From Mobula hypostoma (taxonomy: Eukaryota): a stretch of DNA of 64,000 nt. Below are positions 5,612-45,002 of this stretch, piece by piece. The position numbers and the translations under genes are program-made. The stretch covers positions 175,028,001-175,092,000 of the forward strand of contig NC_086097.1 of assembly GCF_963921235.1 (NCBI RefSeq), in the 5' to 3' direction. The first letter of the stretch is position 1. Every line of letters begins with the position of its first letter. The notes beneath the pieces are model-generated. The model was not told where the DNA came from, did no database searches, and saw only the letters and a list, made by a program, of their open reading frames with translations.

Positions 5612-5647
5612 AGTCGACGTTTCGGGCCGAGACCCTTTGTCAGGACT
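5612..5647 (-). ncRNA. Minimal hammerhead ribozyme motif, core variant
   Basis: Reverse complement AGTC-CTGACAA-AGGGTCTCGGCCC-GAAA-CGTC-GACT; CUGANGA core changed to CUGACAA, probably impaired. Confidence 0.55.
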
Positions 5648-6365
5648 AACTGAAAGAAGAGATAGCAAAAGATTTGAAAGTGGGAAGGGGAGGGGGAAAT
5701 CCGAAATGATAGGAGAAAACAGGAGGGGAAGGGATAGAGCTAAGAGCTAGACAAGTGATTGGCAAAGGGGATATGAAAGGATCATGGTATGAGAGGATCA
5801 TGGGACAGGAGGCCCAGGGAGAAGGAAAAGGTCGGGGGGGAGCCCAGAGGATGGGCAAGGGGTCTTGTGAGGGGGACAGAGGGAGAAAAAGGAGAGAGAG
5901 AAAAAGAATGTGTGTGTATAAATAAATAACGGATGGGTTACGAGGGGGAGGTGGGGCATTAGCAGAAATTTGAGAAGTCAATGTTCATGCCATCAGGTTG
6001 GAGGCTACCCAGATGGAATATAAGGTGTTGTTCCATCATGAACATTGACTTCTCTATCTTCCGCTAATGCCTCACCTCCCCCTCATATCCCATCCATTAT
6101 TTATTTATATACACACATTCTTTCTCTCTGTCTCCTTTTTCTCCCTCTGTCCCTCTCACTATACCCTTTGCCCATCCTCCGGGTTTTTTCTCCTCCTCCC
6201 CCTTTTCTTTCTCCCTAAGCCTCCTGTCCCATGATCCTCTCATATCCCTTTTGCCAATCAACTGTCCAGCTCTTGGCTCCATCCCTCCCCCTCCTGTCTT
6301 CTATCATTTTGGATCTCCCCCTCCCCCTACCATTTTCAAATCTCTTACTAGCTCTTCCTTCAGTT

Positions 6366-6401
6366 AGTCCTGACGAAGGGTCTCAGCCCGAAACGTCGAC
6401 T
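6366..6401 (+). ncRNA. Minimal type I hammerhead ribozyme motif (Penelope pLTR)
   Basis: AGTC-CTGACGA-A-GGG tctcag CCC-GAAA-CGTC-GACT: stem I AGTC/GACT, core CUGANGA and GAAA, loopless palindromic stem III (ACGT), predicted cleavage after GUC at 6397. Confidence 0.8.
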
Positions 6402-7126
6402 GTACCTCTTCCTGGAGATGCTGCCTGGCCTGCTGCGTTCACCAGCAACTTTGATGTGTGTTGTTTAAAGAAGTTTAATGATCCTTTTAAGGAGAATACT
6501 GTCAGAATTTACTTTGGTTAGAATTTGTGAGTTTAAAACAACAGCGAAATACTTTGGATGATGACAATCAGAGACAAGAAATGAAAAATCCAAGGGATAG
6601 TTGGATTTTTTTTTAAGAGAAAACGTGACTTGGTGGTTTACCTTGCCAATCTTTTGTTTCTGAATGAGAATGTCTCTGACCTGAAACATAGCAAAAGCCA
6701 TATATAGGTTAGGTGACCACTTCGTGGACACCTATGATCAGTTTGCAGTGTGACTCTAAATTTTCTATTGTGAACACTTTCATTCACTGTCCTGGTCACA
6801 CACTGACCTCTCCATCTGTCACCTCCTGCACTGTTACAACTTGCCCAATATAAGTTTGAGGAGCAACGTCTTGTCTTCCGCCTGGACACGTTTCAGCCTT
6901 TCAAGTTTGACATTGAATTCTCCAACTTTAGGTAATTGTTTTTTTTTCTTCTGTTTGAATTGGAACTGGCCACTTCTGCCAATAATCATTTGGGCTCAGT
7001 TTTTCTTATTCTATTTATAGAGTCTAGCCTACTGGAAATGTTCCATAGCCTGTTATACAGACAAAATGCGTAATGTGCTTTTAACTGTATCTATTAACTT
7101 TTTTGGTCTTATCCTATCAGAGATAT

Positions 7127-8170
7127 TTCTTTTGTTCTTCTTTCTCAATCTTTTTATTAATTTTTTGAGAAGTACATGTATACAGACAAGAGGATTATCT
7201 CTGATACCTATATCGATAACAATACATATAAAAGGTAAAATAAACATTATCAAGATCATACATATCATACATAGTATTAATCTAATAGTATATAATAAAA
7301 ATCAAATACTCCTGTTATCATTTCATAGAGAGAAAAAAGATAAAGAAACTTTTATAATTTTTATATATAGGAAAAAACCCACTATTCTCTATATATTTTT
7401 TTTTAAAAAATGAAAAATAATTTAAAAAAAAAGAGGGACCGGCCAGCCCACGTTGAGAGTAAAGCAAGAAAAAAGAAAAACTTTCTGATCAAATCCAAAG
7501 TTTCGAGAGAGTAACTGGGAGAGCAATAAATCAAACCATATGAAAATATTGAATAAAAGGTCACCAGGTCTCTTCAAATTTAAAGGCTGTATCAAATGTC
7601 TGACTTCTTATTTTCTTTAAACTTAAACAGAACATAATGGAGGAAAGCCAAAAGAAAACAGTAGGTGGATTAGAGTCCTTCCATTTAAGCAAAATGGCTC
7701 TCCTAGCCAATAAAGTTGTAAATGCTATCATCCGTTGAGCAGAAACAGGAACATATCTTGCTTCCGGTGGAATGATCCCAAAAATTGCTGTAAATAAATT
7801 CGGTTGTAGGTCCAAATTCAAAACTTTTGATAACTTTTGGAAAGATGTCTTTAAAACTTTATCTATCTTGATACAAGACCAAAACGTATGAGTTAAAATA
7901 GCCACCTCAATGTTACATCTGTCTGAAATAGGATTAATATTAGGAAAAATATGGGCTAATTTATCCTTTGACATAGGTGCCCGGTGTACTAACTTGAACT
8001 GTATCAAGGAATGATGGGCACAAATGGATGAGGTATTTACCAAATGAAAAATTTTATCCCATTGATTATCTGAAAGTGACTCTCGAAATTCCAATTCCCA
8101 CGCACCTTTAATTTTATCATTAGATACCTTTTGCAAATTCAATAACCATTTATAAATTATAGCTATCAGT
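7127..8170 (-). mobile_element. L1-clade LINE, ORF2 3' part and A-rich 3' UTR
   Basis: ORF 7561-8142 (WDKIFHLVNTSSICAHHSLIQFKLVHR...DRC...LTHTFWSC...LLARRAILLKWKDSNPP) resembles fish L1 ORF2 C-termini; frame continues at 10863 across the hAT insertion. Confidence 0.88.
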
Positions 8171-8353
8171 CAATGTTCCCTCTAATTTTTAGTAGTCAGT
8201 GTGCGCAAAAATCTTCTATTGTGCAAGTTTTTTTCCTGTGACAAAAGTACGTGCGCACTGAATGCACACATGGGACAGTTTATGTAGGTTTACAAAATAT
8301 TTGACATAAAACTGTACAGAATAACAACAAAATAACATACATATTTAAGTCAC

Positions 8354-8805
8354 ACACACAAAAAATGCTGGTGAACACAGCAGGCCAGGCAGCATCTATA
8401 GGAAGAGGTACAGTCGACGTTTCGAGCCGAGACCCTTCGTCAGGACTAGCTGAAAGAAGAAATAGTAAGAGATTTGAAAGTGGGAGGGGGAGGGGGAAAT
8501 CCGAAATGATAGAAGACAGGAGGGGGAGGGATGGAGCTAAGAGCTGGAAAGTTGATTGGCAAAAGGGATACGAGGCTGGAGAAGGGAGAGGATCATGGGA
8601 CAGAAGGCCTAGAGAGAAAGAAGGGGGGGGAGCCCAGAGGATGGGCAAGGGGTATAGTGAGAGGGACAGAGAGAGGGAAAAAAAGGGGGAAAATCATAAT
8701 AATGATAATAAGAAATAAGGGATGAGGTATGAAGGGGAGGGGGGCATTAGCAGAAGTTAGAGAAGTCAAGTTCATGCCATCAGGTTGGAGATATTTAATT
8801 TTTAT
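8354..8805 (-). mobile_element. Penelope-like terminal repeat inserted in the hAT element
   Basis: Matches the pLTR at 13893-14360; flanked by 14-bp direct repeat CATATTTAAGTCAC (8340-8353 / 8806-8819). Confidence 0.9.
8412..8447 (-). ncRNA. Minimal hammerhead ribozyme motif
   Basis: Reverse complement AGTC-CTGACGA-AGGGTCTCGGCTC-GAAA-CGTC-GACT. Confidence 0.75.
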
Positions 8806-9363
8806 CATATTTAAGTCACTCAGTTATTTTTTCTCTCTCCTGTCTTCGGCATTTACCCATTCTTTGTAAACGCTATCTCGACTAATAGAACTTCCATCCC
8901 ATTGATATCTTTTGATTCTCATTAACATATCCAAATGACATTCACCTAAACAGTTTCTCAGCTTGGTTTTGAGTTGATTCATTAGGCTAAAACCTCGCTC
9001 ACAGTACGCACTAGACACAAGAAAGGTTCCCCCAATGTCCATCAACTGTGCAAGGTCGCAAAACTGTTCATTTTGAAGTACAGATGCCACCATTTGAGCA
9101 AAGTTTGAAATTGGTTTGGATTTAATTTTTTCTTGAAATCATTAAACTGTCTAACTATTACAATATTTTCAGCTAGAAAATCATGATATTTTAGACATAA
9201 GGCATTAACTTGTTCATCGCCAAATGTGAAGTCACAATCTGCAATGACGGAAAAATCAAAAGTTGACCATTCTTGTACCTCAACTTTGATCTCCTCTGGG
9301 TTTGATCGTCTTCACTCTCGCTCATCTGCACTCAACCGTAACATACGTGGCACTCCTGTAACG

Positions 9364-10161
9364 CAGGGGTCCCCAACCTTTTTTGCACCACGGACCGTTT
9401 TAATATTGACAATATTCTTGCGGACCGGCCAACCGGCGGGGGGGGGGTTCAAGTGGGGTTAAACTTACCTCAACGTGTCTTTTACAGTTAGGGTTGCCAA
9501 CTTTCTCACTCCCAAATAAGGGACAAAAGTAGCAGTCAAATCCCAGGACACTTTACCCCAGGAAAGACTACCATGACAGTGAAGCCTTGCGCGGTCACCT
9601 GTGTGCGCATGCGTGACGTGCGTATGTGATGTGCGCATGCATGTACGTGCCAATTTTTTTCCCCACAAATTGATTTCCCCTTCATCTTCCCGACTATACT
9701 GTAAATACATTATTTCTACTTTATATAGGCTGTGTATTTATCATATCATTCCTGCTTTTACTATATGTTAGTGTTATTTATTTTCAGTTTTGTGTGTTAT
9801 TTGGTATGATTTGTTAAGTTATCTTTTGGGTCTGGGAACGCTCAAAAATTTTTCCCATATAAATTAATGGTAATTGCTTCTTCACTTCATGCCATTTCGG
9901 CACAAAAGTTTTCATAGGAACGCTCTACCATAGCTGGAGAAATACGGGACAAGGGCGATCCTGTATGGTACAAACCAATTTAGCCCAATATACGGGATGT
10001 CCCGGCAAATACGGAACAGTTGGCAACCCTATGTTCAAGTTCAACAGTGCGTAACAGGGAATGAGGAGAGGCGCAGCTGACTGATATTGTTTCCTCGCGG
10101 CCCGGTAGCACATGCTTTGCGGCCCGGTACCGGTCCGTGGCCTGGTGGTTGGGGACCGCTG
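9364..10161 (-). mobile_element. Non-autonomous hAT (Charlie-like TIRs) nested in the outer hAT
   Basis: TIRs CAGGGGTCCCCAACC / GGTTGGGGACCGCTG; perfect 8-bp TSD CTGTAACG (9356-9363 / 10162-10169); termini shared with 20972-22160 in opposite orientation. Confidence 0.93.
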
Positions 10162-10862
10162 CTGTAACGGGTAATGATGGGTTCTGTTGCCTGAGCTTTT
10201 GTACACCATCCAAATGCGATTTACTTGCCAAATGACACTTCAAAAAGTCAAGTTTCCAAATATCATCCCACTTCTTTCCACTAGCAAATTCTCCAGCAAC
10301 TTTCACATCACAATACAAACAGATAACTCCATTTTCTGAATCGTACATAAATATTTCTCGTAGCTGAACGTTCATGACCTCATGAGCTTTCAGTGTAACA
10401 GTTTCTACTATTTTGTTAAGCCATTCAACTTAATAAATTTGCAGTTCTTTTGCGCTTCACGCCCTTCGCTTCTTTTGAATTCGACATAGTGAATCAATAT
10501 CTTTTCCAATAAAAACTTAGTAAGCTATCTACAGGATTTGAAACAGATCTTTGTAAACTTTACGGTATGAACACTGTCTGCCAAACATGGCTGCCGCCAT
10601 GATGCAGCTGTACAAACCGGAACAGGATAGGTGAGGTAACGTAAATTAGTGACGTGCATTGTGGTATTTGAAAAACCAACTAACTAGTTAACAGAAACAG
10701 TTAGCTAAAAGATTATTTTCAATAAGTATAATAATTATTAACTACTACATTATTTTAGTTAACTACCTTTTGTACGTACATTATTTTCCTTTGTGCGTTG
10801 GTTGAAAAACGTGTATGTGCGCGCGCACATGCGCACAGCTTAGAGGGAACTATGCAATCAGT

Positions 10863-11430
10863 CCTTTTTGAAATGGTTTAACCTGAAAAAGAGTATCTAT
10901 TGTATTGGGTAGATAAGCAGAGGGAATATTTGGAAGTAAACTATGTAAAAAATTCCTCATTTGGAAATATCTAAAAGTGTGCATTAGATAAATCATATTT
11001 GCCCACTAACTGAGTGAAAGACATTAAACCATCCTCCATAAACAAATCCTTAAAAGTTATTATTCCCTTAGTTTTCCAAATTAAAAAGGTCTGATCGGAA
11101 ATTGATGGTTTAAAAAAATAATTAAGATGGATTTTACTAGAAAGAACAAAGTTATTAAACTCAAAAAATCTACGAAACTGAAACCAAATTCTTAATCTAT
11201 GTTTAATAATTGGATTGAGGTCTCGACTACCAATCTTAGAAAGGAAAAAAGGAAGAGAAGCTCCCAGTAAAGAGGCCAAAGAATACCCCTTCACCGAGTT
11301 TTTCTCCAAATCTACCCATAGAGGACAATCATGTATGTCTGAATAATGAATCCAAAACAAGGTGTATCGAATATTAATTACATTCTAAAAATTTGGCAAA
11401 GCCATACCACCATGTTTTTTTAATTTCTAT
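10863..11430 (-). mobile_element. L1-clade LINE ORF2 fragment (upstream continuation of 7127-8170)
   Basis: ORF 10971-11360 (LRIWFQFRRFF...WKTKGIITFKDLF...SFTQLVGKYDL); after removing the hAT the frame reads PFQKGLIAIIYKWLLNLQKVSNDKIK across the junction. Confidence 0.88.
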
Positions 11431-12088
11431 TTCTTTTGTTCTACCCAGACCTGCCTTGGCACATCTTCTACTAAAAACTATGGTCCGCTCTCCGCTATCC
11501 AATTCCTTCCTCTCCAGCCCTTGTCTTTTCTACCCACCTGGCTTCACTATCACCTTTTAGCTATCCTTCTCCTCCCCCTACCTTTTTATTTCGGTGTTTT
11601 CCCCCTCCCTTTCCAGTTCTGAAGAAGGGTCCTGGCCCAAAACGTTAACTGTTTGTTCATTTTCATGTCTTGTCTGATCTGATTAAACTGCCAGCATTTT
11701 GTGTGTGTTGCCGAAAACTAACTTCTTTTTCTCTTTACCAGTGTGACGAAGGTTCCTGGACCTGAAATGATCACTGATCTTTCTGCAGATGCTAATGATC
11801 TGCAAAATGTTTTCAACATTTTCTGTTCTTATCACTGAATCATGAACTGTTTGCAGATGTTCCTTCACCTTCTAGTATTTAATGTCAGTTTAGATTTAAG
11901 TATGTAGAAGGGCTAGATTTACTTCACAACACCATGGAGACTTACTTCATGGAACTTAGGATAGATATTTAAAATAAACAACAAAAGATGCATTTTTATT
12001 TTTAAATTATTGATTCACTAACCCTTAATAATGCCAGTAGTTTGCAGTTTTGTGTAGTTAATGAGAAATTTATAAATTTATCTTCTAG

Positions 12089-12157
12089 TTGTAAAAACAA
12101 CAGTTCTGCTGGCAGACATCAATGACTTCAACTGTGTTAATGAAGTTTACAAGCAAT
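12089..12157 (+). CDS. RIDA: RIDA exon 4
   Basis: tcttctag|TT...CAAT|gtaagt; 69 bp encoding (V)VKTTVLLADINDFNCVNEVYKQ(Y). Confidence 0.97.
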
Positions 12158-13576
12158 GTAAGTAGAACTATTATGCTCCTTTTCCTGGCGGGGAAGCCAG
12201 TGAATAACTCAGAATTAAATAGTTTTGTTACTTATATGTTGAAACATTCAGTGGAATGCATCGTTTTTGTGTCACTGACCAACACGTTCCAAGGATTGTG
12301 ATGGAGGGGGTGGGCGCAGTCTGCCAGTGTTGTATGCTTCTAGCGCCAACATAGCAAGCCTGCAATTTTATTTGGATTATTTCCATTTGTGGATCTTGCC
12401 CACAAACGTCAAATGGGATTGGTGGAATTTAGCCTATTAAATAAAAGAAAGGCTGGGTCTGGAGTACATGCATTGACAAATGCAGAAGTGCTTAACTGAC
12501 TGAATGATATGGTTGGCCTTGCAAAGGATCTTTAACCCCAATGGTTTCAACAGGGATTGCAGAGCTTTGGGAGTAAGGTAACAGGGAGGTCAAATTTGCT
12601 GGATAGTTTCTGGATGGTTCAATCTTTTACATTTTTGCTTATTACTTTTAAATGAAATCTTTTATAATTTTTAATAGTTTCTCACTTTAAATCGCCAGAG
12701 AAATTTGCATTATTGAAAGTCCTCCACATCTTTAACAGGTGGTTAAGCTGGGAGCAGTGTTTTCAAACATGATGAATCTTTATATACTGATTCTGTCCCA
12801 AGGCTGAAGTTGTGTCCTATTTGGGTGCCAAGAGAGATGTGAAGGTTTCAGAAAGGCAGCAGAGGAGGTTTATTTAAACGGCAAATGATAGTTCTATGTG
12901 TAGACTGGAGAAGCTATCCTCTCTTTAGAGCAGTCGGGGTTTTAAGATCTGATTTGAAATATTTAAAATCATGAAGTAAAATTAGGAGGAAAAGATGAAA
13001 AAGACTCCACAGGCTGAATGGCCTTGCTCCATGCTGTGTTTCTAAAAGGTTATTCCTTTTTATTACATTGTACTGCTTCTGCAAAGTTAACAAATTTCAT
13101 GACATATGCCGGTGATGTTGAACTTGATTCTGATTCCCATCAGGAAAGGTTGTGTATGCAAGCCCCTTCCCTCCAAAATTCAAATCTAATTGAGGCCTTC
13201 AATATTATGAAAGAATTTGTTACAGATGTAGACAAGACATTTATAGGAGAGTTGGGAAATAGAGCCTTTAAATACAGTACTTTGCAAAAGTCGTAGGCAC
13301 CCTAGATATATGTCCACTGTATGTGCCTAGGACTTTTGCACAGTTCTGTAGAAGATGGTCATTAATGACTATCATTGGCAATCTGAGTTGAATCCTGTAG
13401 ATGATTCCAAGGTAGGCGAAGTGAGATACAAGAGGAAGAAAGGAAAAGCAGGATGGTCTTACAGATAAATAGGATGGTTGAAGACCTGGGATTAGCATCA
13501 GATTAGGCAGAGACATAAATGCCTCTTCCTGTTTTCTCTAATTTCCATTTGATTTAAACTTGTGTTTTCTTCTCAG

Positions 13577-13632
13577 ATTTTAGAAGCAACTTTCCGGCCA
13601 GAGCAGCTTATCAGGTTGCAGCATTGCCGCGG
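13577..13632 (+). CDS. RIDA: RIDA exon 5
   Basis: ttttcttctcag|AT...CGG|gtgagt; 56 bp encoding (Y)FRSNFPARAAYQVAALPR, including the catalytic Arg of the FPAR motif. Confidence 0.97.
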
Positions 13633-13988
13633 GTGAGTTGTGTGTGTGTGTGCCTCCCAAATTTTGGACTTCCGTATCCCAAGGATGCATGTTTCACTGT
13701 ATGGTTATCCCTTGTCGCCCTTAAATGGGTCCTGAACTTGTGAAGGTATTCCAAGGGTGTAGCTGAGGAGCAGTTTCAAGATTTGGAATAGTGATAGATG
13801 GTGTGTAATTTATAGAGAAATCTGATGATGGTGGTGGTGTCCTGTGTTCTTGGTGGAAGAGATCACTGGTAAGGAAGTTGCTGTTAGAGTAAACAACAGG
13901 AATTCTGCAGATGCTGGAAATTCAAGCAACACACATCAAAGTTGCTGGTGAACGCAGCAGGCCAGGCAGCATCTGTAGGAAGAGGTGC

Positions 13989-14024
13989 AGTCGACGTTTC
14001 AGGCCGAGACCCTTCGTCAGGACT
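13989..14024 (-). ncRNA. Minimal hammerhead ribozyme motif in the 3' pLTR (sense to the element)
   Basis: Reverse complement AGTC-CTGACGA-AGGGTCTCGGCCT-GAAA-CGTC-GACT. Confidence 0.8.
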
Positions 14025-14314
14025 AACTGAAGGAAGAGTGAGTAAGGGATTTGAAAGTGGGAGGGGGAGATCCAAAATGATAGGAGAAGACAGGAGGGGG
14101 AGGGATGGAGCCGAGAGCTGGACAGGTGATTGGCAAAAGGGGATACAAGAGGATCATGGGACAGGAGGTCCGGGAAGAAAGACAAGCGGGGGGGGGGGTC
14201 CAGAGGATGGGCAAAAGGTATATTCAGAGGGACAGAGGGAGAAAAAGGAGAGTGAGAGAAAGAATGTGTGCATAAAAATAAGTAACAGATGGGGTACGAG
14301 GGGGAGGTGGGGCC

Positions 14315-17300
14315 TTAGCGGAAGTTAGAGAAGTCGATGCTCATACCATCAGGTTGGAGGCTACCCAGACGGAATATAAGGTGTTGTTCCTCCAACCTGA
14401 GTGTGGCTTCATCTTTACAGTAGAGGAGGCCGTGGATAGACATGTCAGAATGGGAATGGGATGTGGAATTAAAATGTGTGGCCACTGGGAGATCCTGCTT
14501 TCTCTGGTGGACAGAGCGTAGATGTTCAGCAAAGTGGTCTCCCAGTCTGCGTCGGGTCTTGCCAATATATAAAAGGCCACATCGGGAGCACCAGATGCAG
14601 TATATCACCCCAGTGGACTCACAGGTGAAGTGTTGCCTCACCTGGAAGGACTGTTTGGGGCCCTGAATGGTGATAAGGGAGGAAGTGTAAGGGCATGTGT
14701 AGCACTTGTTTCGCTTACACGGATAAGTGCCAGGAGGGAGATCAGTGGAGAGGGATGGGGGGGACGAATGGACAAGGGAGTTGCGTAGGGAGCGATCCCT
14801 GCGGAATGCAGAGAGGCGGGGGAGGGAAAGATGTGCTTAGTGGTGGGATCCCGTTGGAGGTGGCGGAAGTTACGGAGAATAATATGTTGGACCCGGAGGC
14901 TGGTGGGGTGGTAGGTGAGGACCAGGGGAACCCTATTCCTACTGGGGTGGCGGGAGGATGGAGTGAGAGCAGATGTACGTGAAATGGGGGAGATGCGTTT
15001 AAGAGCAGAGTTGATAGTGGAGGAAAGGAAGCCCCTTTCTTTAAAAAAGGAAGACATCTCCCTCGTCCTAGAATGAAAAGCCTCATCCTGAGAGCAGATG
15101 CGGCAGAGACGGAGGAATTGCGAGAAGGGGATGGCATTTTTGCAAGAGACAGGGTGAGAAGGGGAATAGTCCAGATAGCTGTGAGAGTCAGTAGGCTTAT
15201 AGTAGACATCAGTGGATAAGCTGTCTCCAGAGACAGAGACAGAAAGATCTAGAAAGGGGAGGGAGGTGTCGGAAATGGACCAGGTAAACTTGAGGGCAGG
15301 GTGAAAGTTGGAGGCAAAGTTAATAAAGTCAACGAGTTCTGCATGTGTGCAGGAAGCAGCGCCAATGCAGTCGTCGATGTAGCGAAGGAAAAGTGGGGGA
15401 CAGATACCAGAATAGGCACGGAACATAGATTATTCCACAAACCCAACAAAAAGGCAGGCATAGCTAGGACCCATACGGGTGCCCATAGCTACACCTTTAG
15501 TTTGGAGGAAGTGGGAGGAACCGAAGGAGAAATTATTAAGAGTAAGGACTAATTCCGCTAGACGGAGCAGAGTGGTGGTAGAGGGGAACTGGTTAGGTCT
15601 GGAATTCAAAAAGAAGTGTAGAGCTTTGAGACCTTCCTGATGGGGGATGGAAGTATATAAGGACTGGACATCCATGGTGAAAATAAAGCGGTGGGGGCCA
15701 GGGAACTTAAAATCATCGAAAAGTTTAAGAGCGTGAGAAGTGTCACGAACATAGGTTGGAAGGGATTGAACAAGGGGTGATACAACTGTGTCGAGGTATG
15801 CAGAAACGAGTTCGGTGGGGCAGGAGCAAGCTGAGACAATAGGTCGGCCAGGACAGGCAGGTTTGTGGATCTTGGGTAGGAGGTAGAAACGGGAAGTGCG
15901 GGGTGTGGGAACTATAAGGTTGGTAGCAGTGGATGGGAGATCCCCTGAGCAGATAAAGTCGGTGATGGTGTGGGAGACAATGGCCTGGTGCTCCTTAGTG
16001 GGGTCACGATCGAGGGGTAAATAAGAGGAGGTATCGGTGAGTTGTCGCTGTGCCTCGGCAAGGTAGAGGTCAGTATGCCAGACTACAACAGCACCCCCTT
16101 TATCAGCGGGTTTAATAATAAGGTTAGGATTAATGCGGAGGGAGTGGAGAGCAGAGCGTCCCAAAGGAGTGAGGTTGGAATGGGGACAAGGTGCGGTGAA
16201 GTCTAGATGGTTGATGTCCCGTCGGCAATTAGCGATAAAGAGATCCAGAGCAGGCAGAAGACCAGAGCGGGGTGTCCATGAAGAAGAGGAGGGTTGAAGA
16301 CGGGAGAAGGGGTCATTGGTGGGGGTGGAAGAGTCCTTGCCGAAGAAGTAGGCTCGGTGACGGAGACGGCGGAAGAAGAGTTCCGCATCATGGCGAACAT
16401 GGAACTCGCTGAGGTGTGGGCGAGGGGGGACAAACGTGAGGCCCTTACTGAGAACAGAGCGTTCTGCCTCCGACAGTTGAAGGTCGGAGGGGATGGTAAA
16501 GACCCAGCACGGATGAGAGCTGGGATCAGAGGGGGGAGGGGGGAGGCTGGGGGTGTCAGTGGAGGGGGGAGGGTTAGGGTAAGAGGAAGATGGAGCCTCT
16601 GAGGGCCCAGGAGTTGACGGTGGGATCTGAGGAAGACGGGGCTGCGGAGTGGTGGTGGGGGAAGGGGAGACGGGAGTCACAACAGCAGCACATAAAGACC
16701 CGGCCTGGAGTTCAAGGCTGGAGTCGCAGTTGGTGGTTGTGCAATCACTTTGAATGTCTCCATGGTCGTTGCTGGAGTCCGGGTTTTGAATATGCCCCGA
16801 GGTTTTGGAGCCGGCGAGATCAATGACAAGGGCCGCAATTTGAAGTTCATGCCTGCTAGCGTCGGGGCCAGCAGGCTCTGGAGTCCGTAGATGTAGGATC
16901 TTGAGATCTTTGCCTAACATGACAAAGTCAAAAAAACGACGATTGCAGGCGTGAATCCGACGGAGGATGAAATAATGGGTAGGACCATTACAGACGGCGA
17001 AGAAGGTGTCCCGAAGGTGTGGAAGGGTCTGGGATAGGGACACCAAGTACCTCCTCATGGCGGAGAGAGTCGCCTTCAGAGCTTGACGGGAGAAGCGGCG
17101 AGAGGCAGAGTCAATAAAATGTGAGTACTTGGGATCCTCAGAAGGTCCAAATTGAGAGGCTTGGAAAAGAATCCTAAAGCCAACTGGAGTAAGTTGGCGA
17201 CGGAGGCACGTTCCAAGAAAGGATATATGGCTGTGATAGCGAGTCTGAGTCAAAGTGTGCTCGAAAAGTAGAAGAGCCGAAGAAATTACAGATGGGGAGC

Positions 17301-33284: not shown

Positions 33285-33601
33285 CTGGACATGGAAACCA
33301 TGAAATCTGAGTCAAGTTACCTATCCGGATGAGAACAACAGAAGTGAGCAAATCAGAAAATGAGTTACCGGAAGTTATATGATTTGATACCGAGTCTTCC
33401 TCCCGCATTATTTCAGTGCAATCCAATGTAAGCTTGAGGAATAATGCCTCTTCTGTCTGGGCACGTTGCAGACTCAATATCAACTTCAACAACTTTAGGT
33501 AATTCACATTCTTTGGCTGCAGCAGAACTGTCTGGGTCTTCAGTCAACCATCTGTGATATTGGCTCAGTTTAGCTCCTTGCACTGGTACATCCTGATATT
33601 A

Positions 33602-33754
33602 TAGGTCGACCTTCACTAATCCGGCACCATTGGGACTTGAGGAGTGCCGGATTAGTGAAAATGCCGAATTACAGAAGGATCACATTAAGCATAATCAGTG
33701 CCGGATTATCGAAGGAACTGGATTACAGGTAGTTGGATTAGTGAAGGTCGACTT
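33602..33754. mobile_element. Tc1/mariner-pogo type MITE
   Basis: TIRs GTCGACCTTCACTAATCC / GGATTAGTGAAGGTCGAC, TA on both sides, internal ccggatta repeats. Confidence 0.8.
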
Positions 33755-33944
33755 TACTATTATCACTTGCAATACAATATCACGTAAGGGTTGCATTTTG
33801 CATTATTTCAGATTGCACTACAATCTTTGTACCATTTCTGTTGTTCAGCACTCGTATTTATTATTACATGTATACCGTTTACTCCATGGACTTCATTTCA
33901 ATTTCATTGCACCATGAAGTATATGACAAATAATCTAAACTAAT

Positions 33945-34447
33945 TCTACTGCTACAACGAGGCCACTCTCAGGTTGGAAGAGCAAAACCTGTTATCCGTC
34001 TGGGTAGTCTTCAACCTCATAGTATGAACTTTGATTTCTCTAACTTATCCCCCTGCCCCCTTCTCTCTTTTTCCATCCCCATTCTGGCTCCCCTCTCACT
34101 CTGTCTTTTCTCACCTGCACATCACCTTCCTCTGGTGCCCCTCCTCCTTTCCTTTCTCCCATGAACTACTGTCCTGTCAGATTCCTCCCTCTTCAGCCCT
34201 TTACCTCTTCCACCAATCACCTCCCAGCTTCTCATTTCATTGTCCCTCCTCTACCCACCCACCTTGCCCTTCACCTGGTCTCACCTATCACCTGACAGCT
34301 TGTACTCCCATATTCTTATTCTGACTTCCTTGCCTCTTCCAGTCCAGTCCTGATGAAGGGTCTCAGCCCGAAACGTTGACTGTTTATTGCTCTTCATAGA
34401 TGCTGCCTGACCTGCTTCGTTACTCCAGCATCTTGTGTGTGCTGCTC
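33945..34447 (+). mobile_element. Older Penelope-like 3' fragment
   Basis: gaggccactctcaggttggaagagcaaaacc...ctgggtagtcttcaacct (endonuclease C-terminus), pyrimidine-rich UTR, tail gatgctgcctgacctgct. Confidence 0.8.
34346..34381 (+). ncRNA. Minimal hammerhead ribozyme motif
   Basis: AGTC-CTGATGA-AGGGTCTCAGCCC-GAAA-CGTT-GACT (GUU triplet). Confidence 0.75.
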
Positions 34448-36100
34448 CAATCTAGTCCAATCCTTTGATCTATAACTATCTGTCAACTTTTACCCATCGA
34501 TCTCTACATATTCCCACAGTTAATCCTAACCTCATCCTAATACACATATACTCTTTTTGTCCTGCCCATCCAACCCCAACCCAACTCTGCTACTAAATAA
34601 ACTATTTTTTCCTCTTTCCATGTATGCTGACTGACCTGCTTGAGCCTTTCCAACATTTTCTGCTTTTATGGCAATTTTGGGGATGGTGGTTGAATAGCGT
34701 AGGTGAATAACCAGTGCATTTTGCACATGGTATTCACTGCAGTCACTGTATGCTGGTGGTGGAGGGACTGAATGTCTTGAGTGATAGATGAGGTGTCCAT
34801 CAAACAGGCTGCTTCATTCTGCATAGTGTCAAGTGTTTTGAATATTGTTGGATCTAGATTCATCCAGGTGGGGTGGAGTACGAGGGTTTCCAGTCTTAGA
34901 ATTAATGCTAGACAGCAATCAGTGTTGGAATTCGGGGAAGTCTATGTCATAGAGACAGACCTTTAGCTTGTTTGGGAAAATGACGAGGCGATAGATAGGA
35001 GCTACAGGAAGGTAGTCACTCCTAAATTGCAAGAGGCAGGTAACTGGGTGACTGTCAGAAGAGGGAAAGGAAATGGGCAGCCAGTGCAAGAGTACCCTGT
35101 GGTCATTCCTGTCCCCCTCAATAATAAGTATATCACCCTTGATACTGTTGGGGGGGAATGACTACCGGGTGGAACTGCAGCAACTGTGTCGTTGCCATTG
35201 AGCCTGGCATTGTGGCTCAAAAGGGAAGGTGCGGGAGCGAAGAAGGCTGCAGTAGTGATAGGGGGTTCCATAATTAGAGGAGGGGACATGAGATTCTGTT
35301 TACTTGCAAGCGACACCCAGATGTTGCGTTGCCTCCCAACTGCCAGGGTCAGAGGTGTCTCTGATTGGGTCCATGGCATTCTAAAGGGGGGAGTCGAGCA
35401 GCCAGAAGTCTTGGTATATATTGGTACCAATGACATGGGTAGGAAAAGGGAGGAAGTCCTGAAGAGAGAATTTAGGGATTTGGGTAGAAAGCTGAAAAAC
35501 AGGACCTCCAGGGTAGTGATCTCCGGATTGCTGCCTGTGCCACGTGTTAGAGAGAGTAAGATAGGATCATTTGGCAGATGAATGCATGCCTGGTGCAAGG
35601 GGCAGGGGTTCAGAATTCTAGATCATTGGGATCTCTTCTGGGGAAGGTACGACTTGTACAGGAAGGACGGATTACACCTGAACCCAGGCGGGACCAATAT
35701 CCTTGTCAGCAGGTATTCTAGAGCTGTTGGGAATGGTTTAAACTAATTTGGCAGGGGGATGGGAACCAGAGTGATGAGTTATTTGCTATACAAGTAGATG
35801 CAGTGTGTAGTGAGACTGTTGGGAAGGACAGCAGATGACAGAGCAAAATTGCAGTCAGCGGGGTGAGTTGAAGTGTAACATGTGGACAAGATCGAAAAGG
35901 GTAATGAATGAAGGTGTTATACTCGAGTGCACGCAATATGTGGAATAAGGTGGATGAACTTGTAGCACAGTTAGAGATTGGCGGGTATGATGTTGTGGGC
36001 ATCACTGAGTCGTGGCTGAAAGAGGATCATAGTTGGGAGCTAAACATCCAAGGAAAGGACAGGCAGGTAGGTAAGGGGGGGTGGCATGGCTCTGTTGGTA

Positions 36101-36392
36101 GTTAGTTAAAGTCTGTCCCGAGCCTTATAGGCTCATCAGGCTGGTGCTTATGCCGGTTTCCGTGGCGTGAAGCGACTGAGAGTACGAGACTCCCCCTGCC
36201 CGCTAGGACGCCAGTCTATTGCGAGGTTAACCCCCCAGTATTTTGCCGGTACCCATTTTCAGCTGGGTGGACTGGAGCAGTGTGTGGTTAAGTGCCTTGC
36301 TCAAGGACATAACACGTTGCCTCGGCTGGGACTCGAACTCACAACCTTCAGATCACTAGTCCAACGCCCTAACCGCTTGGCCACGCACCACA
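36101..36392 (-). mobile_element. tRNA-derived SINE
   Basis: On - strand: A box TGGCCAAGCGG, B box GTTCGAGTCC, core gtccttgagcaaggcacttaaccacacactgctc, tail ending aactaac; 9-bp TSD CTGTTGGTA (36092-36100 / 36393-36401). Confidence 0.9.
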
Positions 36393-36889
36393 CTGTTGGT
36401 AAAAATAAAAGAAATCAAATCGTGAGAAAGAGGTGACATAGGTTCAGAAGATTTAAAATCTTTGAGGATAGAAATAAGAAATTGCAAGGTAAAAAGACCC
36501 TAATGGGAGTTACATACAGGCCTCTGAACAGTAGCCAGAATTACAACGGGAGTTAGAAAAGGCACATAATAAGGGCAAAGTCATGGAGGATTTCAATATG
36601 CAGGAAGATTGGGAAAATCAGTTTGTTGCTGGATCCCAAGACAGAAAATTTGTAGAATGCCCATGAGGTGGTTTTTTAGAGCAGCTTGTGGTTGAGCCAC
36701 TAGTGGAAATGCTATTCTAGATTGGGTGTTGTGTGACGAACCGGATTTGCTTAGGGAGTTTAAAATATAGGAACCCTTGGGAGGCAGTGATCATAATTTG
36801 ATAGAATTCACCCTGCAATTTGAGAGGGAGAAGCTAGAGTTAAATGTATACTATTTCATTGAAGCAAAGGGAATTACAGAGGCAAGGGG

Positions 36890-37392
36890 GTATGATGGAG
36901 GTTCACCAGATTGATTCCTGGGATGGCAGGACTTTCATATGATGAAAGACTGGATCGACTAGGCTTATACCCTCTGGAATTTAGCAGATGGAGGGGGGAT
37001 CTGATTGAAATGTATAACATCCTAAAGGGATTGGACAGGCTAGATGCAGGAAGATTGTTCCTGATGTTGGGGAAGTCCAGAACGAGGGGTCACAGTTTGA
37101 GGATAAAGGGGAAGCCTTTGAGGACCAAGATGAGGGAGAACTTCTTCACACAGAGAGTGGTGAATCTGTGGAATTCTCTGCCACAGGAAACAGTTGAGGC
37201 CAGTTCATTGGCTATATTTAAGAGGGAGTTAGATAAGGCCCTTGTGGCTAAAGGGATCAGGGGGTATGGAGAGAAGGCAGGTATAGGGTTCTGAGTTGGA
37301 TGATCAGCCATGATCGTACTGAATGGTGGTGCAGGCTCGAAGGGCCGAATGGCCTACTCCTGCACCTATTTTCTATGTTTCTATGTTTCTAT
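36890..37392 (+). mobile_element. Young 5'-truncated CR1 inserted in the older CR1
   Basis: Uninterrupted ORF 36911-37294 (GLSYDERLDRLGLY...FFTQRVVNLWNSLP) and (TTTCTATG)n tail; host CR1 resumes at gagcagagctggcc. Confidence 0.88.
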
Positions 37393-39400
37393 GAGAGCAG
37401 AGCTGGCCAAAGTACAGCAAAAATTAGCGGGAAGTTAGAGAATTGGGAAGTTTTTAAAAACCAACAGAACGCAACTAAAAAAGTTATAAAGAAGGAAAAG
37501 ATGGAATACAAAGTTAAGCTAGCCAATAATATTAAATGGGATACCAAAAGTTTCTTCAGGTATATAAAGTGTAAAAGAGAGACGAGAGTAGATATTGGAC
37601 TGCCGGAAAATGATGCTGTAGTAATGGTGGACAAGGAAATGGCAGACAAACTGAATAAGTGTTTTGCGTCAGTCTTCATTGTGGAAGACATTAGTGGTAT
37701 GACAGAAGTTCAAGAGTGTCAGGGGGTAGAAGTGAGTACAGTTACTATTACTAGGGAGAAGCTGCCTGGTAAACTGAAAGTAGGTAAGTCACCTGGACCC
37801 AGATGAACTACACACTAGGGTTCTGAAAGAGATAGCTGAAGAGATTGTGGAGGCACTAGTAATGATCTTTCAAGAATCACTAGATTCTGACATGGTTCCG
37901 GAGGACTGGAAAATTGCCAAAGTCACTCCACTCTTCAAGAAGGGAGGGCAGTAAAAGAAAGGAAATTATAGGCTAGTTAGTCTATAGTCAGTGGTTGGGA
38001 AGATGTTTGAGTCAATTGTTAAGATTCCACATGATAAAATGAGCCAAGTTCAGCATGGTTTTCTTAAGGGATTAGTAATCTGTTGAAATTCTTTGAGGAA
38101 ATAACAACCAGGATGGACAAAAGAGAATCAGTAGATATTGTGTACTTGAATTTTCATAAGGCCTTTGACAAGGTGCCGCACCTGAGGCTGCTTAACAGGA
38201 TTAAGAGCCAATGGTATCACAAGAAGGATATCAGCATAGATAGAGGATTGGCTGATTCATAGGAGGCTAACGCTGGGAATAAAGGGAGCCTTTTTTGGTT
38301 GGCTGCTGGTGACTAGAGGTATTCTGCAGGGGTCGATTTTGGGACCGCTTCTTTTTATGTAACATGTCAAAGCTTTATTTGACAGAATTGATGGCATTGT
38401 AGGCAAGTTTGCAGATAATATGAAGACAGGTGGAGAGGCAGATAGTGTTGAAGAAGCAGGGAGGCTGCAGAAGTTCTAGGAGAATGGGCAAAGAAGTGGC
38501 AGATGAAATATAGTGTCAGGAAGTGTATGGTCATGCACTTTGGTAGAAGGCAGACACATTGGCAGACACTATTTTCTAAACAAAGAGAAAATTCAAAAAT
38601 CCAAGGTGCAGAAAAGCTTGGGAATCCTCATGTAGATTTCTCTAAAGGTTAACTTGCAGGTTGAGTTGGTGGTGAGGAAGGCAAATACAATGTTAGCATC
38701 TATTTTGAAAGGACAAGAATATAAAAGCAAGAATGTAATGCTGAGGCTTTATAAGGCACTGGTTAGGCCTCACTTGGAGTATTGCGAGCAGTTTTTGGCC
38801 CCTTACATAAGAAAGTATTTGCTGATATTGGAGAGGGTTCAGAGGAGGTTCACAAAAATGATTACAAGAATGAAGGGGTTATCGTACTCACTGGAATTTA
38901 GAATAATGGGGGGGGGGGATCTCATTGAAACCGATAGAATGTTGAAAAGTCTAGATAGAGTGGATGCGGAGAAGATGTTTCCAATAGTGGGAGAGTCAAG
39001 GACCAGAGGGCATGGCCTCTGAACAGAGTGATGTCTATTTAGGATGGAGATGAGGAAGAATTTTCTAAGCCAAAGAGTGGTGAATCTGTGGAATTCATTG
39101 CTACAGGTAGCTATGGAGGCCAGATCATTGGGTGTATTTAAAGCCGAGGTTGATGGGTTCTTGAGTAGTCTGGGTGTGAAAAGTTACAGGGAGAAGGCAG
39201 GGGAATGGGGTTAAGAGGAAACATGGTTCAGCCATGATGAAATGGTGGAGCAGTCTCAATGGGCTGAATGGCCTAATTCTGTTCCTATGTCTTATGTGAA
39301 ACATTTGTGGGCATCTTTACAAGGACAATTACAAAATTACAAGTGTTGTCACTGACTGCAGAATATGGGTCAGTGTTTCAGATCACAACTGATATGTTAC

Positions 39401-39685
39401 CTTCAATCTGGTCCTCAGAAGGATGAACTTTTTCAATATCATCAGCATCAGAGAGTGCAGTCTCTTCCACTGGAGCTGCTGACACCGCTTGTTCTTCAGA
39501 AGTCACCCCTGCATGAGCTGAACTGTCTTCAGTATCTGTGGTCAAACGCGCCCCATCTTCTAAAGGGCTTGGCTCATTGGTGATGACCTCGTCAGGACCA
39601 GGGTCGGCTGCCCTGGGTTCCAATAGTTGGGCTTGATCTGGAATTGTTTCCCCTTCATTGGTTATTGGGCCATTTACATCTGGAG
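39401..39685 (-). CDS. ERICH5: ERICH5-like internal exon
   Basis: acacag|CT CCA GAT...ATT GAA G|gtaaca; 285 bp, phase 1-1, acidic, ending DIEKVHPSEDQIE(G) and joining GETGEK. Convergent position next to RIDA matches the mammalian arrangement as I recall it. Acceptor position less certain than donor. Confidence 0.75.
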
Positions 39686-39809: not shown

Positions 39810-41300
39810 CTTAAATCTGTATTTGGTGCTCCAAACATGGCTTCCTTTACATAATTGAGACCAAGCACAGACTGGATGACTGTTTCACAGTGAACCCACA
39901 CTCAGTCCATAGTGGCCATCCCAAGCTCCCAGTTGCAAACCATTTCAACACCTCTTCCCACCCCAGCGTGTCTGTTCTTAGCCTTCGCCGCTGCTAGTAT
40001 AAGGTCCAACACAAAATACAGGAACAACACCTTGTATTCTGCCTTGGTAGTTTACAATGCCATGGTATTAACATTAAGTTTTTCAATTTTAGTTTCTTCC
40101 TCCTTTGCCTCCACTCCCATTCTCTCCCCCACCTCTCTTCTTCCATTTCTGTCCCCCTTTTTCTCAACCGCCCCCACCCCCAATCACTCGTCATCCATCT
40201 TTGATCCCTCCCTCTGCTGGTACCATTCACTCACTATACACACAGTTCACCCAAGGTTCCCCCCTCCACAATCTGGTTCTGGCTCCATCTACCATTCACC
40301 TCTTCCTTAATAGTTCCCATTCTCACCTCCTTTATGTATCAGAGTTCAATACTGGTGGCTCTTTGTATTCCTGTTTATCTCCCACCAGTCTCTGTCTCCA
40401 ACATTCACACTCCCCTCCCCCCCGCCAACTCACTCCATCACCCTCTCATCTTTGTTTTCCTTCCCTCTATCTAACTCCATCAATTATTCAGCTGCTACTG
40501 TCTTCCAACTCCATTCCCTCCCTCCTCTTCCTGGCACAAACTGTCATCATCTTACAACCCTCCTGTCCACCAGTCTCCTCAGATTCCTGAATTTCCTCCT
40601 CCTGTTTATACCAGCCATCTCCCCACTATAGTCCTGAAGCAGGGTTTCCAACCCAAACAAGTCTTTTCTTCCCCCAGATGCTGCTCAACCCAATGAACTC
40701 CTCCAGCATTACACTATTAATGTGTCAGCCATAATCTGAGCTATCAGAACAGGTTCTGGAGTTGGTGTTAAGAGTTTGCAAATGTTCTCATACATAGCTG
40801 CCCACAAACATCTCCAACTTGTCAAATGACTGCTCTGCAACATCTGTCCCAGAAGATGCTCCTTCCCTCCTCTGCCTGGATGAGTGCAGCTTCAGCTGAA
40901 TTCAGGAATGCTGAAGCCGACAGAGAAAACGAAGCAGTCAGGGCCAGAGTACTGAAAGTTGTTGATGAAGTGGTGGAGGTAGAAAAGGGCTAGACCAGAG
41001 GTGACAAGATGGAGTTGATATGAAAAGGTGAGTTGGGTTGGGCAGGAGCAGGCAGAAACCATCCCCCACCAGGGCAGTTTTGTTTGTGAATCTTTGGTAG
41101 GAGGTGGAATCGGACAATGTGGTGTTGGGGAACTGTCAGTGAAGAAAGTGGGAGGGGCCAAAGCAGAAGTTGCTGTATACAAGGACAGGTTCTGTCAGAC
41201 AGAGGAGCTTGGTGGTGGAAAGGGAAAGATTGGGTCTGTTTCCAGAAATCTCTGAACCCTTCCTGATGGGTGGATAAAGTGGGAGGAACCAAAAGGGAAG
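39810..41300. mobile_element. Two old Penelope-like fragments (+ 39810-40710; - 40790-41300)
   Basis: Endonuclease-end remnant aggaacaacaccttgtattctgccttggtagtttacaa with decayed tail; minus-strand RT remnant FHLLPKIHKQNCP...VSACSCPT. Confidence 0.7.
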
Positions 41301-42565
41301 TGGCGAAGGTGCAAAAATCAGAGTTGGGCCTGCTTCTTATTTAAAGTGATCATGGGAGATCATCTGCTTGGGTACCCTGTTCCTACTTTCTACCCATGAT
41401 TCCTTTAATGTTAAGAAACATATTTACCTCCTGGAATATATTTAATGGCCTCCTCCACTGCTTCATGTGGTAGAGAACTCCATGGGTTCACCAGCATTTG
41501 GGTGAACACAGTTTTTCTAAATGGACTACCCTCCTGTCCTGTGAGCTGGGACTGGACTCACCAACCAACAGGAGCATCCTTCGTGTGCAGCTTCCAGGTA
41601 GAATTTGAGAGGGTTTTTGTAAGATCCTCTTTCATTCTGCTGTTCTCCAATCTGTCTTCATTTGGTAAACCTACCGTCCCGGGAAGGACTCTAGTCAACC
41701 TCCAGCATTCCTTCCATGGCAAGAACATAAGGAGACCAAAGCTGCACACAAAACTCCTAACTCTTGTCTGACTGAGACTCTGTAGAAGTGCAGAAAACCA
41801 CCCTTGTTCCCTTTCTCAAATCATCTTCCTTCCCCAACTCCTTGCTGCGCCTGAACACTTCGCTCAGTGACTGGTTGGTCTACAAGGGCCTGATGTACCT
41901 GCACTTTCCCCACGCTGACACCATCTAGATAATTACCTGCTACTGGAATCAGATTTTTAATTATTTTGCTAAGGTATTAGTTGAATTAATGCAAGACTAA
42001 AATTTTAGTTTCCCAACACACAATTTGTACTTTTAAAGCATATATTTTCACACTATGTGCTGTTTGTCTCCACATGCTGGCAAAAAAGCAGTGTAGCAGT
42101 TACATAACAGTGTCACATTTTCATTTTTCATTGGCTATGTATTAGCACATGACATGTGCTGTGACTGAATCTTTTGATTGGTCCTTCCTTGTCTCAGGAA
42201 TTTGTCTTATCCGAGTATAAAAGTGTCAGGCTCTGCAAAAATCACCATCTTTGCTCTTTATTCTGGTCTTTTGTCTTTGGCCCCAGTTCATACGCTCTGT
42301 ATCTGTTCCTTTGCTTAAACTTTAAAATAAAAGACTGTGAAGCTGCAAGTTTTCACTCATTTTTGGGCTCATAGAAGAACATGAGAAATGAAAAATCACT
42401 AAATTCCCAACTGCCTTGCTGTTTTTAGAAAAAGAAATCGGATAGCTTCATATTTATCCAAATTAAATTGGGCAGAAAAGTGACATATGGACTCCAATAT
42501 TGGGAAACAGGACTAGTGCTATCAGATATCAGACTCTTGAATGGAGCTCTTGTGTGATAAAATGG

Positions 42566-43133
42566 AGCACCTCCGCTCTGTCCGCCACAACAAACAGGGT
42601 CTCCCGGTAGCCACCCACTTAAACTCTGCTTCCCATTCCCATTCGGATATGTCCATACATGGCCTCCTCCACTGCCATGATGAGGCTAAACTCAGGTTGA
42701 AGGAGCAACACCTCATATACCGTCTAGGTAGTCTCCAGCCCCTTGGTATGAACATAGAATTCTCCAACTTCCGGTAATTCCCTCCCCCTCCCTTCCCCAT
42801 CCCTATGTCACTCTGTCCCTCCCCCAGCTGCCTATCACCTCCTTCATGGTTCTGCCTCCTTCTACTATCCATTGTGTTTTCCCCTATTCCTTCTTCACCT
42901 TTCCTGCCTATCTCCTCCCTGCCTCCCTTCCCCCACCCCTTTATCTTTCGCCTTACCGGTTTTTCACCTGGAACCTACCAGCCTTCTCCTTCCCACCCTC
43001 CCCCCACCTTCTTTATAGGGCCTCTGGCCCTTCCCGCTACAGTCTTGATGAAGGGTTCTGGCCCGAAACGTCGACTAATCGTTTCCACAGATGCTGCCCG
43101 ACCTGCTGAGTTCCTCCAGTGTGTTGAGTGTAA
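42566..43133 (+). mobile_element. Penelope-like 3' fragment, second subfamily
   Basis: EHLRSVRHNKQGLPVATHLNS...RLKEQHLIYRLGSLQPLGMNIEFSNFR; flanking direct repeat TGATAAAATGG (42555-42565 / 43134-43144); hammerhead variant with TTGATGA core at 43041-43076. Confidence 0.88.
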
Positions 43134-44422
43134 TGATAAAATGGTCTCCTGGCCTCACAGTCTACCTTGTTACGATATTCCACTCTATCTTTTACCTCCA
43201 CTGTACACTTTCGGTAGCTTTTACACTTTATTCTGCATTGCTCTTATTTTATCTTTTTCTAGCTCAGTGCATTGTGTAATGATTTGATATTTATAAACAG
43301 TGTGCAAGACAAACTTTTCACTGTATTTCGGTACATGTGACAATAATAAAATAAAAAAACTAATACCAATATATTTGAGCCACACACACAAAATGCTGGA
43401 AGAACTCAATACGCCAGGCAGCATCTATGGAAAAGAGTAAAACAGTCGACACTTTGGGCCAAGTCCCTTCATCGGGACTGGAAAAAAATGAGAAGTCTGA
43501 GCAAGAAGGTGATGGGAGGGGTGGAAGAAGAACAAGGGAAATCAGAATGGGAAATGGTGAAGGAGAGGGGAAGGGCCATTGCTGGAAGTTTGAGAAATCG
43601 ATGTTCTTTTCATCAGGTCGGAATATGAGGTGTTGCTCCTCCAACTTGAGTGTGGCCTCACCATAGCAGTAGAGGAGGCCATGGACTGAGATTCTAGAAT
43701 GGGAAGGGGAAGTAGAATTAAAATGGGTGACCACTGGGAGATCCCACTTTTTCTCATGGTCTGAATGTTGGTGCTCGGCGAAAAGGTCTCCCAATCTACT
43801 TCAGGTCCCACCGATACACAAGAGGCCACACTGGGAGCACCGGATACAGTAGATGACCCCAACAGACTTACAGGTGAAATGTTGCCTCCCCTGGAAGGAC
43901 TGTTTGGGGCCCTGAATGGTAGTGAAGGAGGAGTTGTAGGGGCAGGTGTATCACTTGTTCCGCTTGCAAGGATAAGTACCAGGAGGGAGATCAATGGGGA
44001 GGGACAAATAGACAAGGAAGTTGCATAGGGAGCGATAGCAGAAAATGGGGGGGGGGTGTGGTGAAGATGTGCTTGGTGGTGGGATCCTGTTGGAGATGGC
44101 AGAATGAAAGCGTGGCATGTAGATGGGAGAAGCAGTCAATTGAAGCTGAGTATCTGTGTTCCTCAGAGGGTCTGAATTGAGAAGCTTGAAAACGGATCTG
44201 GAAGCCATGTGGCACAAGATGGCAGCAAAAACATGTTCCCAGGAAGGATACATGGCCGTAGTAGCGGGTTTGGGTGAGCACATGGTCGAAGAGTTGGAGG
44301 CAGCAGAGATCACAGAGGGGGAACATTGAGAGAGGGTTTCACTGAACTCCCATCAAAGGGAAGATTTACTCACAACACGCTGGAGGAACTCAGCAGGTCG
44401 GGCAGCATCCGTGGAAAAGATC

Positions 44423-44458
44423 GGTCGACGTTTCGGGCCAGAACCCTTCGTCAGGACT
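44423..44458 (-). ncRNA. Minimal hammerhead ribozyme motif
   Basis: Reverse complement AGTC-CTGACGA-AGGGTTCTGGCCC-GAAA-CGTC-GACC. Confidence 0.75.
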
Positions 44459-44966
44459 GAAGAGGGAAGGGGCAGAGGCCCTATAAAGAAGGTGGGGGGA
44501 GGGTGGGAAGGAGAAGTCTGGTAGGTTCCAGGTGAAAAACCAGTAAGGGGAAAGATAAAGGGGTGGGGGAGGGGAAGCAGGGAGGTGATAGGCAGGAAAG
44601 GTGAAGAAAGAATAGGGGAAAACACAATGGGTTGTAGGAGGCGGAACCAAGAGGGAGGAGGTAGGCAGCTGGGGGAAGGGACAGAGTGACATAGGGATAG
44701 GGGCAGGGAGGGGGAGGGAATTATTGGAAGTTGGAGAATTCTATGTTCATACCAAGGGGCTGGAAGCCTCCCTCTTGGTTCCGCCTCCTACTACCCATTG
44801 TGTTTTCCCCTATTCTTTCTTCACCTTTCCTGCCTATCACCTCGCTTCTTCCCCTCCCCCACCCCTTTATCTTTCCCCTCACTGGTTTTTCACCTGGAAC
44901 CTACCAGCCTTCTCCTTCCCACCCTCTCCCCGCCTTCTTTATAGGGCCTCTGCCCCTTCCCCCTAC

Positions 44967-45002
44967 AGTCCTGACGAAGGGTTCCGGCCCGAAACGTCAA
45001 CC
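44967..45002 (+). ncRNA. Minimal hammerhead ribozyme motif, weakened stem I
   Basis: AGTC-CTGACGA-AGGGTTCCGGCCC-GAAA-CGTC-AACC. Confidence 0.6.

Follow-up and report, generated by a model that had tools for sequence, protein, structure and literature searches.

We analysed a 64,000-nucleotide stretch of the Mobula hypostoma genome (contig NC_086097.1, positions 175,028,001 to 175,092,000; the window hereafter) for hammerhead ribozymes carried by a Penelope-like element (PLE). Judged by their sequence, the motif copies are genuine minimal type I hammerheads of the kind known from the pseudo-long terminal repeat (pLTR) of a PLE, a class recognized since 2014 that is unusually dense in the window and probably inert there. 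We consider it likely that the hammerhead was selected in the active element and is a passenger in host introns, with negligible cleavage of host pre-mRNA. The two host genes are RIDA and an ERICH5-like gene (si:dkey-284p5.3).

Hammerhead copies and their Penelope carrier

A degenerate 35-nt pattern allowing up to three mismatches recovered all nine minimal hammerheads claimed by an earlier sequence-only reading, with their places and strands, and matched in none of 100 dinucleotide shuffles of the window. A profile of the nine copies and their flanks gave 22 matches at E<=1 (reversed window, 0), comprising the nine copies, all six of the decayed copies that had also been claimed (11615, 11744, 40630, 43479, 45968 and 59044) and seven further partial copies (1412, 23351, 23369, 32426, 34610, 45610 and 59465). 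The block downstream of the motif, used as a motif-independent anchor, matched 18 times (control, 0), with intact hammerhead cores in seven. An Rfam search of the window gave nine matches at E<=1, none of them a hammerhead family; over the inverted repeats it returned only below-threshold microRNA-like hairpins. Metagenome contigs scanned for motif and tail gave no matches, as did viral contigs.

The layout is type I: stem I AGUC/GACU, core CUGANGA, one extra A and GAAA, with a 4-bp stem II bearing a 4-nt loop, a loopless ACGU palindrome as stem III, and a GUC site. The palindrome and the extra A (after A9) are present in all nine copies, and stems I and II are formable, 94.4% of 90 cells pairing against 12-43% when slid. 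All 11 invariant core bases are present in seven copies; the other two carry a single core change, G8>A at 5612-5647 (CpG decay) and C3>U at 43041. The nine sites first described as a 36-nt motif or close variants stand, with an intact core in seven only. In the established hammerhead numbering, either change impairs the C3-G8 pair. The same two positions were tested in the Anolis motif by G8C and C3G mutants, with rescue of cleavage (PMC11167929; cited sources are drawn on throughout for the portions of their text available to us). CpG deaminations make up nine of the 13 differences from the majority base, the subfamily B loop excluded, and CpGs occupy 10 of the 36 motif columns (five CpGs). 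TCTCAG versus TCTCGG, formerly taken for subfamily variation, is instead CpG decay inside one subfamily; the stem II loop does vary between subfamilies, but only as CTCG versus TCYG.

The hammerheads sit in the pLTR of an element encoding a reverse transcriptase (RT) and a GIY-YIG endonuclease. Copies continue into endonuclease-coding DNA and Penelope tails, in agreement with the proposed dispersal by Penelope termini. The near-full-length element at 17805-13893 consists of an inverted 5′ pLTR (94% alike over 360 nt), a 52-nt tail copy, an open reading frame (ORF) for RT and GIY-YIG, and a 3′ pLTR with tail. Its ORF lies in three pieces, broken by one stop and one frameshift, which yield a GIY-YIG match and contain DKG, RT, CX4CxxC linker-finger and CCHH motifs. 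A CX2-5CxxC linker finger alongside a CCHH endonuclease and DKG is thus present; the finger excludes Penelope/Poseidon and indicates Neptune or Nematis (PMC8557442), and a Poseidon label was dropped on that ground. Vertebrate distribution, rather than an RT tree, points to Neptune over Nematis, since the PLE clades reported from vertebrates are Neptune and Poseidon only (bioRxiv 10.64898/2026.07.22.740005). Named RT relatives come from Mobula (89%), Hemitrygon (81%) and Chiloscyllium (74%), as matches without clade labels. At least 8,803 of the 64,000 bases derive from the Penelope group.

Nine insertions were tested for target-site duplications: five have duplications of 11-14 bp, one a weak 7-bp duplication and three none. 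All nine insertion ends inspected lie 33-101 nt beyond the predicted cut and none coincides with it, so the template of these copies was uncut RNA, as reported for Anolis Poseidon (PMC11167929). Three junctions, belonging to two insertions, are spanned by DNA contigs from a second organism, among them both junctions of the 33945-34451 copy; these two insertions hence predate the split. The short decayed copies at 45968, 11744, 59044 and 40630 seem to have their start on the motif's 5′ edge or slightly upstream of it.

Assignment to the known PLE minimal hammerheads rather than a new class, as first proposed, was right. Shared with those of Cervera and De la Pena 2014 (PMC4209133) are the type I form, the loopless palindromic 15.2-16.2, a short stem I, an extra base between 9 and 10.1, G10.1-C11.1, pLTR location, mostly solo copies and opposite-strand pairs 100-700 bp apart; stem II has 4 bp here, unlike the 7-8 bp of Schistosoma. 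The Neptune clade of Craig et al. 2021 (PMC8557442) has the same DKG, C-terminal GIY-YIG with CCHH, CX2-5CxxC linker finger, 5′ truncation, inverted 5′ copy and tail, but its tail extension is 30-40 bp against at least 52 nt here, and the targets here are not microsatellites. With Anolis Poseidon PAc (Frangieh et al. 2024, PMC11167929) the element shares a pLTR hammerhead upstream of internal reverse-transcription starts, and copies made from uncut RNA. It differs in clade and in having the linker finger, and whereas the PAc start codon lies within the ribozyme, here a stop in the ORF frame separates the motif from the first ATG. Non-LTR retrozymes (PMC7229834; bioRxiv 10.64898/2026.07.22.740005) are likewise of type I, probably Penelope-derived and high in copy number, but form head-to-tail arrays, whereas the window copies are dispersed or inverted. 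Retrozyme identity was rejected, the motif occurring in none of six tandem-repeat rows.

Seven intact cores in 64 kb would, if the window is typical, exceed the density implied by the motif counts of about 4,000 in coelacanth and 9,000 in Xenopus (PMC4209133); axolotl has up to 120,000 retrozymes (PMC7229834). In one DNA run, unique pieces had a depth of 4-5 and family-copy bins summed to 16,000-123,000, a hint rather than a copy number; such indirect hints fit the large genomic load first suggested. Literature listings from a library with few subscription papers showed no study of this motif in sharks or rays, nor of how its intronic copies are oriented. The available text of PMC4209133 names no cartilaginous fish, and that of a shark and ray genome preprint (10.1101/2025.06.08.657570) does not mention Penelope; the supplements of PMC4209133 and of the 2026 preprint, with one chondrichthyan sampled, may list such copies.

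Conservation and a proposed mechanism

We compared subfamilies over 15, 5 and 3 pairs, subfamily C being one copy. Identity is 0.95-0.98 in the hammerhead core and 0.88-1.00 in the stems, and falls to 0.08-0.80 in the loop (0.08-0.28 against subfamily B). The upstream pLTR scores 0.49-0.60 (shuffled baseline 0.50 +/- 0.04), the block downstream of the motif 0.64-0.72 and endonuclease-coding DNA 0.78-0.80. The sequence-only reading had proposed core against flanks as its test of conservation, and the core passed, in a comparison that is partly circular as the nine copies were chosen by motif. With that circularity, the pattern supports selection on the core in active ancestral elements.

The following sequence of events would account for these observations. 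In the active element the hammerhead would be kept by selection, cutting after GUC when two copies of like sense within one tandem transcript join through their ACGU palindromes; published work suggests that the element protein probably assists. Lying within about a hundred nucleotides of the end at which copying starts, the motif would be carried by nearly every insertion, however short, and this proximity would explain the dense copies. Inserted copies would then be passengers in host introns, with decay at the five CpGs of each. Six of the nine are oriented away from the host transcript, the sense copies, as arms of inverted pairs, would fold into long duplexes, and net cleavage of RIDA or ERICH5-like pre-mRNA would most likely be negligible. 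The PLE minimal hammerhead is inactive as a monomer and weak as a dimer (PMC4209133), and that of Anolis Poseidon depends on protein, is not required for insertion in vitro and has a cut site from which RNA-seq ends are absent (PMC11167929). From such papers, including a review (PMC6765202), we infer by analogy that cleavage in tandem element transcripts would be dimer-dependent, weak and possibly protein-assisted; hammerhead function in Penelope elements is still described as unclear (PMC8557442).

Orientation, predicted folding and rival explanations

All nine hammerheads are intronic, five in RIDA (+) and four in the ERICH5-like gene (-), three of these four putatively so. Host sense is shown by only three (6366, 17741 and 44458), each forming one half of a head-to-head inverted pair; inverted, opposite-strand pairs are a known Penelope arrangement (PMC4209133). 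Whichever strand is transcribed, a head-to-head pair yields its antisense arm before the sense arm. The suggestion that the hammerheads lie inside host transcripts was thus borne out for position and failed for the transcribed strand, on which only those three lie, in predicted sequestered form. With the far arm present, predicted pairing was 0.97 at 6366 and 1.00 at 44458, against 0.03 and 0.01 without it, and the arm duplex at 17741 is predicted at -728 kcal/mol, against -116 kcal/mol folded apart. In all nine isolated 38-nt copies the predicted lowest-energy fold pairs the core with a stem III strand. Stem III as a dimer is predicted to be worth only about -3 kcal/mol, and a GUCGAC self-duplex (about -9 to -10 kcal/mol) beats it in seven of the nine. 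On these folding predictions the host-intron copies are probably inert.

Inverted Penelope copies of RIDA introns 3 and 5 also bracket exons 4-5. Predicted duplexes between them, of -732 (6038-6465 with 13893-14344) and -530 kcal/mol (8351-8790 with 17452-17805), rival the local pairs and could favour circular RNA or exon skipping.

Several points weigh against the passenger reading. Equilibrium folding ignores splicing kinetics, chaperones and adenosine-to-inosine editing. The 17741 inverted-repeat arms are 3.1 kb apart, and the intact sense copies at 6366 and 17741, in one RIDA pre-mRNA, could in principle pair with each other. The intron status of the three copies at 43-45 kb assumes an ERICH5-like first exon beyond the window. 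Stem covariation among 10 distinct, near-invariant rows was no greater than in shuffles, with one double change and a score reached by 259 of 500 of them; the hammerhead structure thus rests on the known motif. Finally, the downstream block is conserved as well, and protein binding may account for some of the constraint.

The strongest rival, which we regard as unlikely, is a load of latent ribozymes, in which sense intronic copies, dimerizing in cis or trans or aided by Penelope protein, cut host pre-mRNA measurably and unshielded intact sense copies are purged by selection. It can draw on the intact cores in seven of nine copies and on orientation: solo near-intact copies are antisense in 3/3 cases and decayed solo copies sense in 5/8. 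The contrast does not reach significance (Fisher p=0.12, binomial p=0.125; in a separate count with other inclusions p=0.09 or 0.23); the count behind the first two values omits 1412, the RIDA first exon not being located, and tail-only or intergenic matches (23351, 23369, 34610, 59465) were left out of both. Family-derived contigs are plentiful in RNA-like runs, whose RNA status is guessed, none of the runs listed being on record as RNA. These runs were used only for contig joins, unspliced intronic pieces may be DNA, and the contigs, which can show neither RNA ends nor RNA level, were viewed for 32 pieces among some 149,700 and 15 joints among some 2,600. Retrozymes are under-represented in Xenopus introns, but published rates are very low and eight of nine Xenopus dimers gave no cleavage (bioRxiv 10.64898/2026.07.22.740005). 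The competing GUCGAC self-duplex also argues against such a load.

A broader version, just as doubtful, is that in the ray lineage a huge population of dimer-type hammerheads endangers long pre-mRNAs and is tolerated via built-in safeties. The safeties would be antisense-first inverted pairs, CpG decay striking the stem III palindrome as well as G8 and G12, and purging of intact sense solo copies. If true, ribozyme activity in vivo would leave a signature that can be counted directly. A copy-rich genome permits a statistical test of such activity, through orientation bias of intact unshielded intronic copies, and in the window three sense copies, each at a unique position and all within two named genes, could serve for end-mapping; failing the orientation-bias test, the finding is repeat annotation.

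Less probable still is that conservation is non-catalytic, reflecting a structure used for protein binding or initiation, or else a splice acceptor that overlaps stem I, with the hammerhead vestigial even in active elements. The stems without covariation and the conserved downstream block fit this explanation, as do dispensable cleavage in vitro in Anolis Poseidon (PMC11167929), the spread of Naiad elements without canonical hammerheads (PMC8557442) and a pyrimidine tract plus AG before stem I, like the D. virilis intron end (PMC4209133). However, conservation is highest in the invariant catalytic bases and lowest in the loop, the Anolis motif is catalytically active and shows C3/G8 rescue (PMC11167929), the entire pLTR is pyrimidine-rich, and the listed skips that end at the motif also occur in a DNA run. 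The tract and AG precede stem I in every subfamily; a splice-acceptor role for this AG is unsupported, with no conserved donor visible and the skips found in DNA. Chance matches, or a non-autonomous tandem retrozyme or short interspersed element in place of Penelope ends, can practically be dismissed: several copies are short and without coding DNA, and two decayed ones lie 128 nt apart, but the empty shuffles, the tandem-repeat result and the continuation into endonuclease-coding DNA and tails argue otherwise.

Features of the window and neighbouring sequences

Coordinates of hammerheads, Penelope copies and host genes in the window
Feature	Position	Strand	Remarks
Near-full-length Neptune-type PLE, broken	13893..17805	-	RIDA intron 5; 14-bp target-site duplication
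Hammerhead, subfamily A	13989..14024	-	core 11/11, GUC, G10.1-U11.1 wobble; predicted cut 13993/13992; antisense to RIDA
Hammerhead in inverted 5′ pLTR	17741..17776	+	GUC, core 11/11; sense in RIDA; its antisense partner arm is 13955-14305 (94% over 360 nt)
5′-truncated element plus inverted copy	5543..6465	.	RIDA intron 3; weak 7-bp duplication; arms 5543-6034 and 6038-6465, ~86% alike
Hammerhead, subfamily A	5612..5647	-	core 10/11 (G8>A); antisense to RIDA
Hammerhead, subfamily A	6366..6401	+	core 11/11, GUC; predicted cut 6397/6398; sense in RIDA
Solo 5′-truncated pLTR copy	8351..8805	-	11-bp duplication; antisense to RIDA; hammerhead 8412-8447, core 11/11
Older solo copy, subfamily C	33945..34451	+	antisense in ERICH5-like intron 2; hammerhead 34346-34381, core 11/11, GUU site
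Solo copy, subfamily B	42565..43133	+	11-bp duplication; antisense to ERICH5-like gene; hammerhead 43041-43076 with C3>U
Subfamily B inverted pair	44369..45099	.	291-nt arms, 96%; 14-bp duplication; inside older deleted element (43372-44368)
Hammerhead in subfamily B pair	44423..44458	-	core 11/11; sense to host
Hammerhead in subfamily B pair	44967..45002	+	first stem I pair lost
Decayed hammerhead of older element	43444..43479	-	core 8/11; sense to host
Two decayed copies	11615..11780	+	sense in RIDA intron 3; 11615 G12>A, 11744 more degenerate
128-bp micro-insertion	45565..45692	+	13-bp duplication; inverted tail joined to hammerhead copy that begins within the core, not at the cut site
Decayed copy	40623..40707	+	profile match
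Decayed copy, stem II deleted	45968..46058	+	profile and downstream-block anchor
Decayed copy	58956..59071	-	core 7/11
RIDA	4496..22285	+	exons 4496-4601, 5374-5428, 12089-12157, 13577-13632, 22210 to stop
ERICH5-like gene (si:dkey-284p5.3)	29750..39685	-	exons 39685-39401, 33284-33174, 31207 to ~29.8 kb

Host exons were assigned by Pfam, PDB and protein homology together with one spliced contig, from a run guessed to be RNA, in which ERICH5-like exons 39685-39401 and 33284-33174 are joined at GT-AG. The RIDA first exon was not located, nor was the ERICH5-like first coding exon found in the window; RIDA exon numbering is taken to follow the mammalian gene. When proteins were searched by words for the ERICH5-like exon, none of 477 candidates was a homolog, whereas an index-free search gave six. 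The ERICH5-like homologs have a Met-Gly-Cys start. The two genes lie tail to tail (4496-39685), presumably as at the human locus, and between them two decayed Penelope ends form an inverted pair that is small and old (23288-23443). At 44355-45113, the young subfamily B pair is inserted in the ORF start of the older, internally deleted Penelope element, directly after its pLTR-ORF junction region.

Other repeats include a decayed long terminal repeat (LTR) retrotransposon with RT and RNase H matches (47300-50000). A Tc1/Sleeping Beauty-like transposase remnant, a weak hAT-like remnant and fragments of long interspersed elements (zf-RVT plus RT) lie within 2297-2866, 8827-10429 and 53929-56726.

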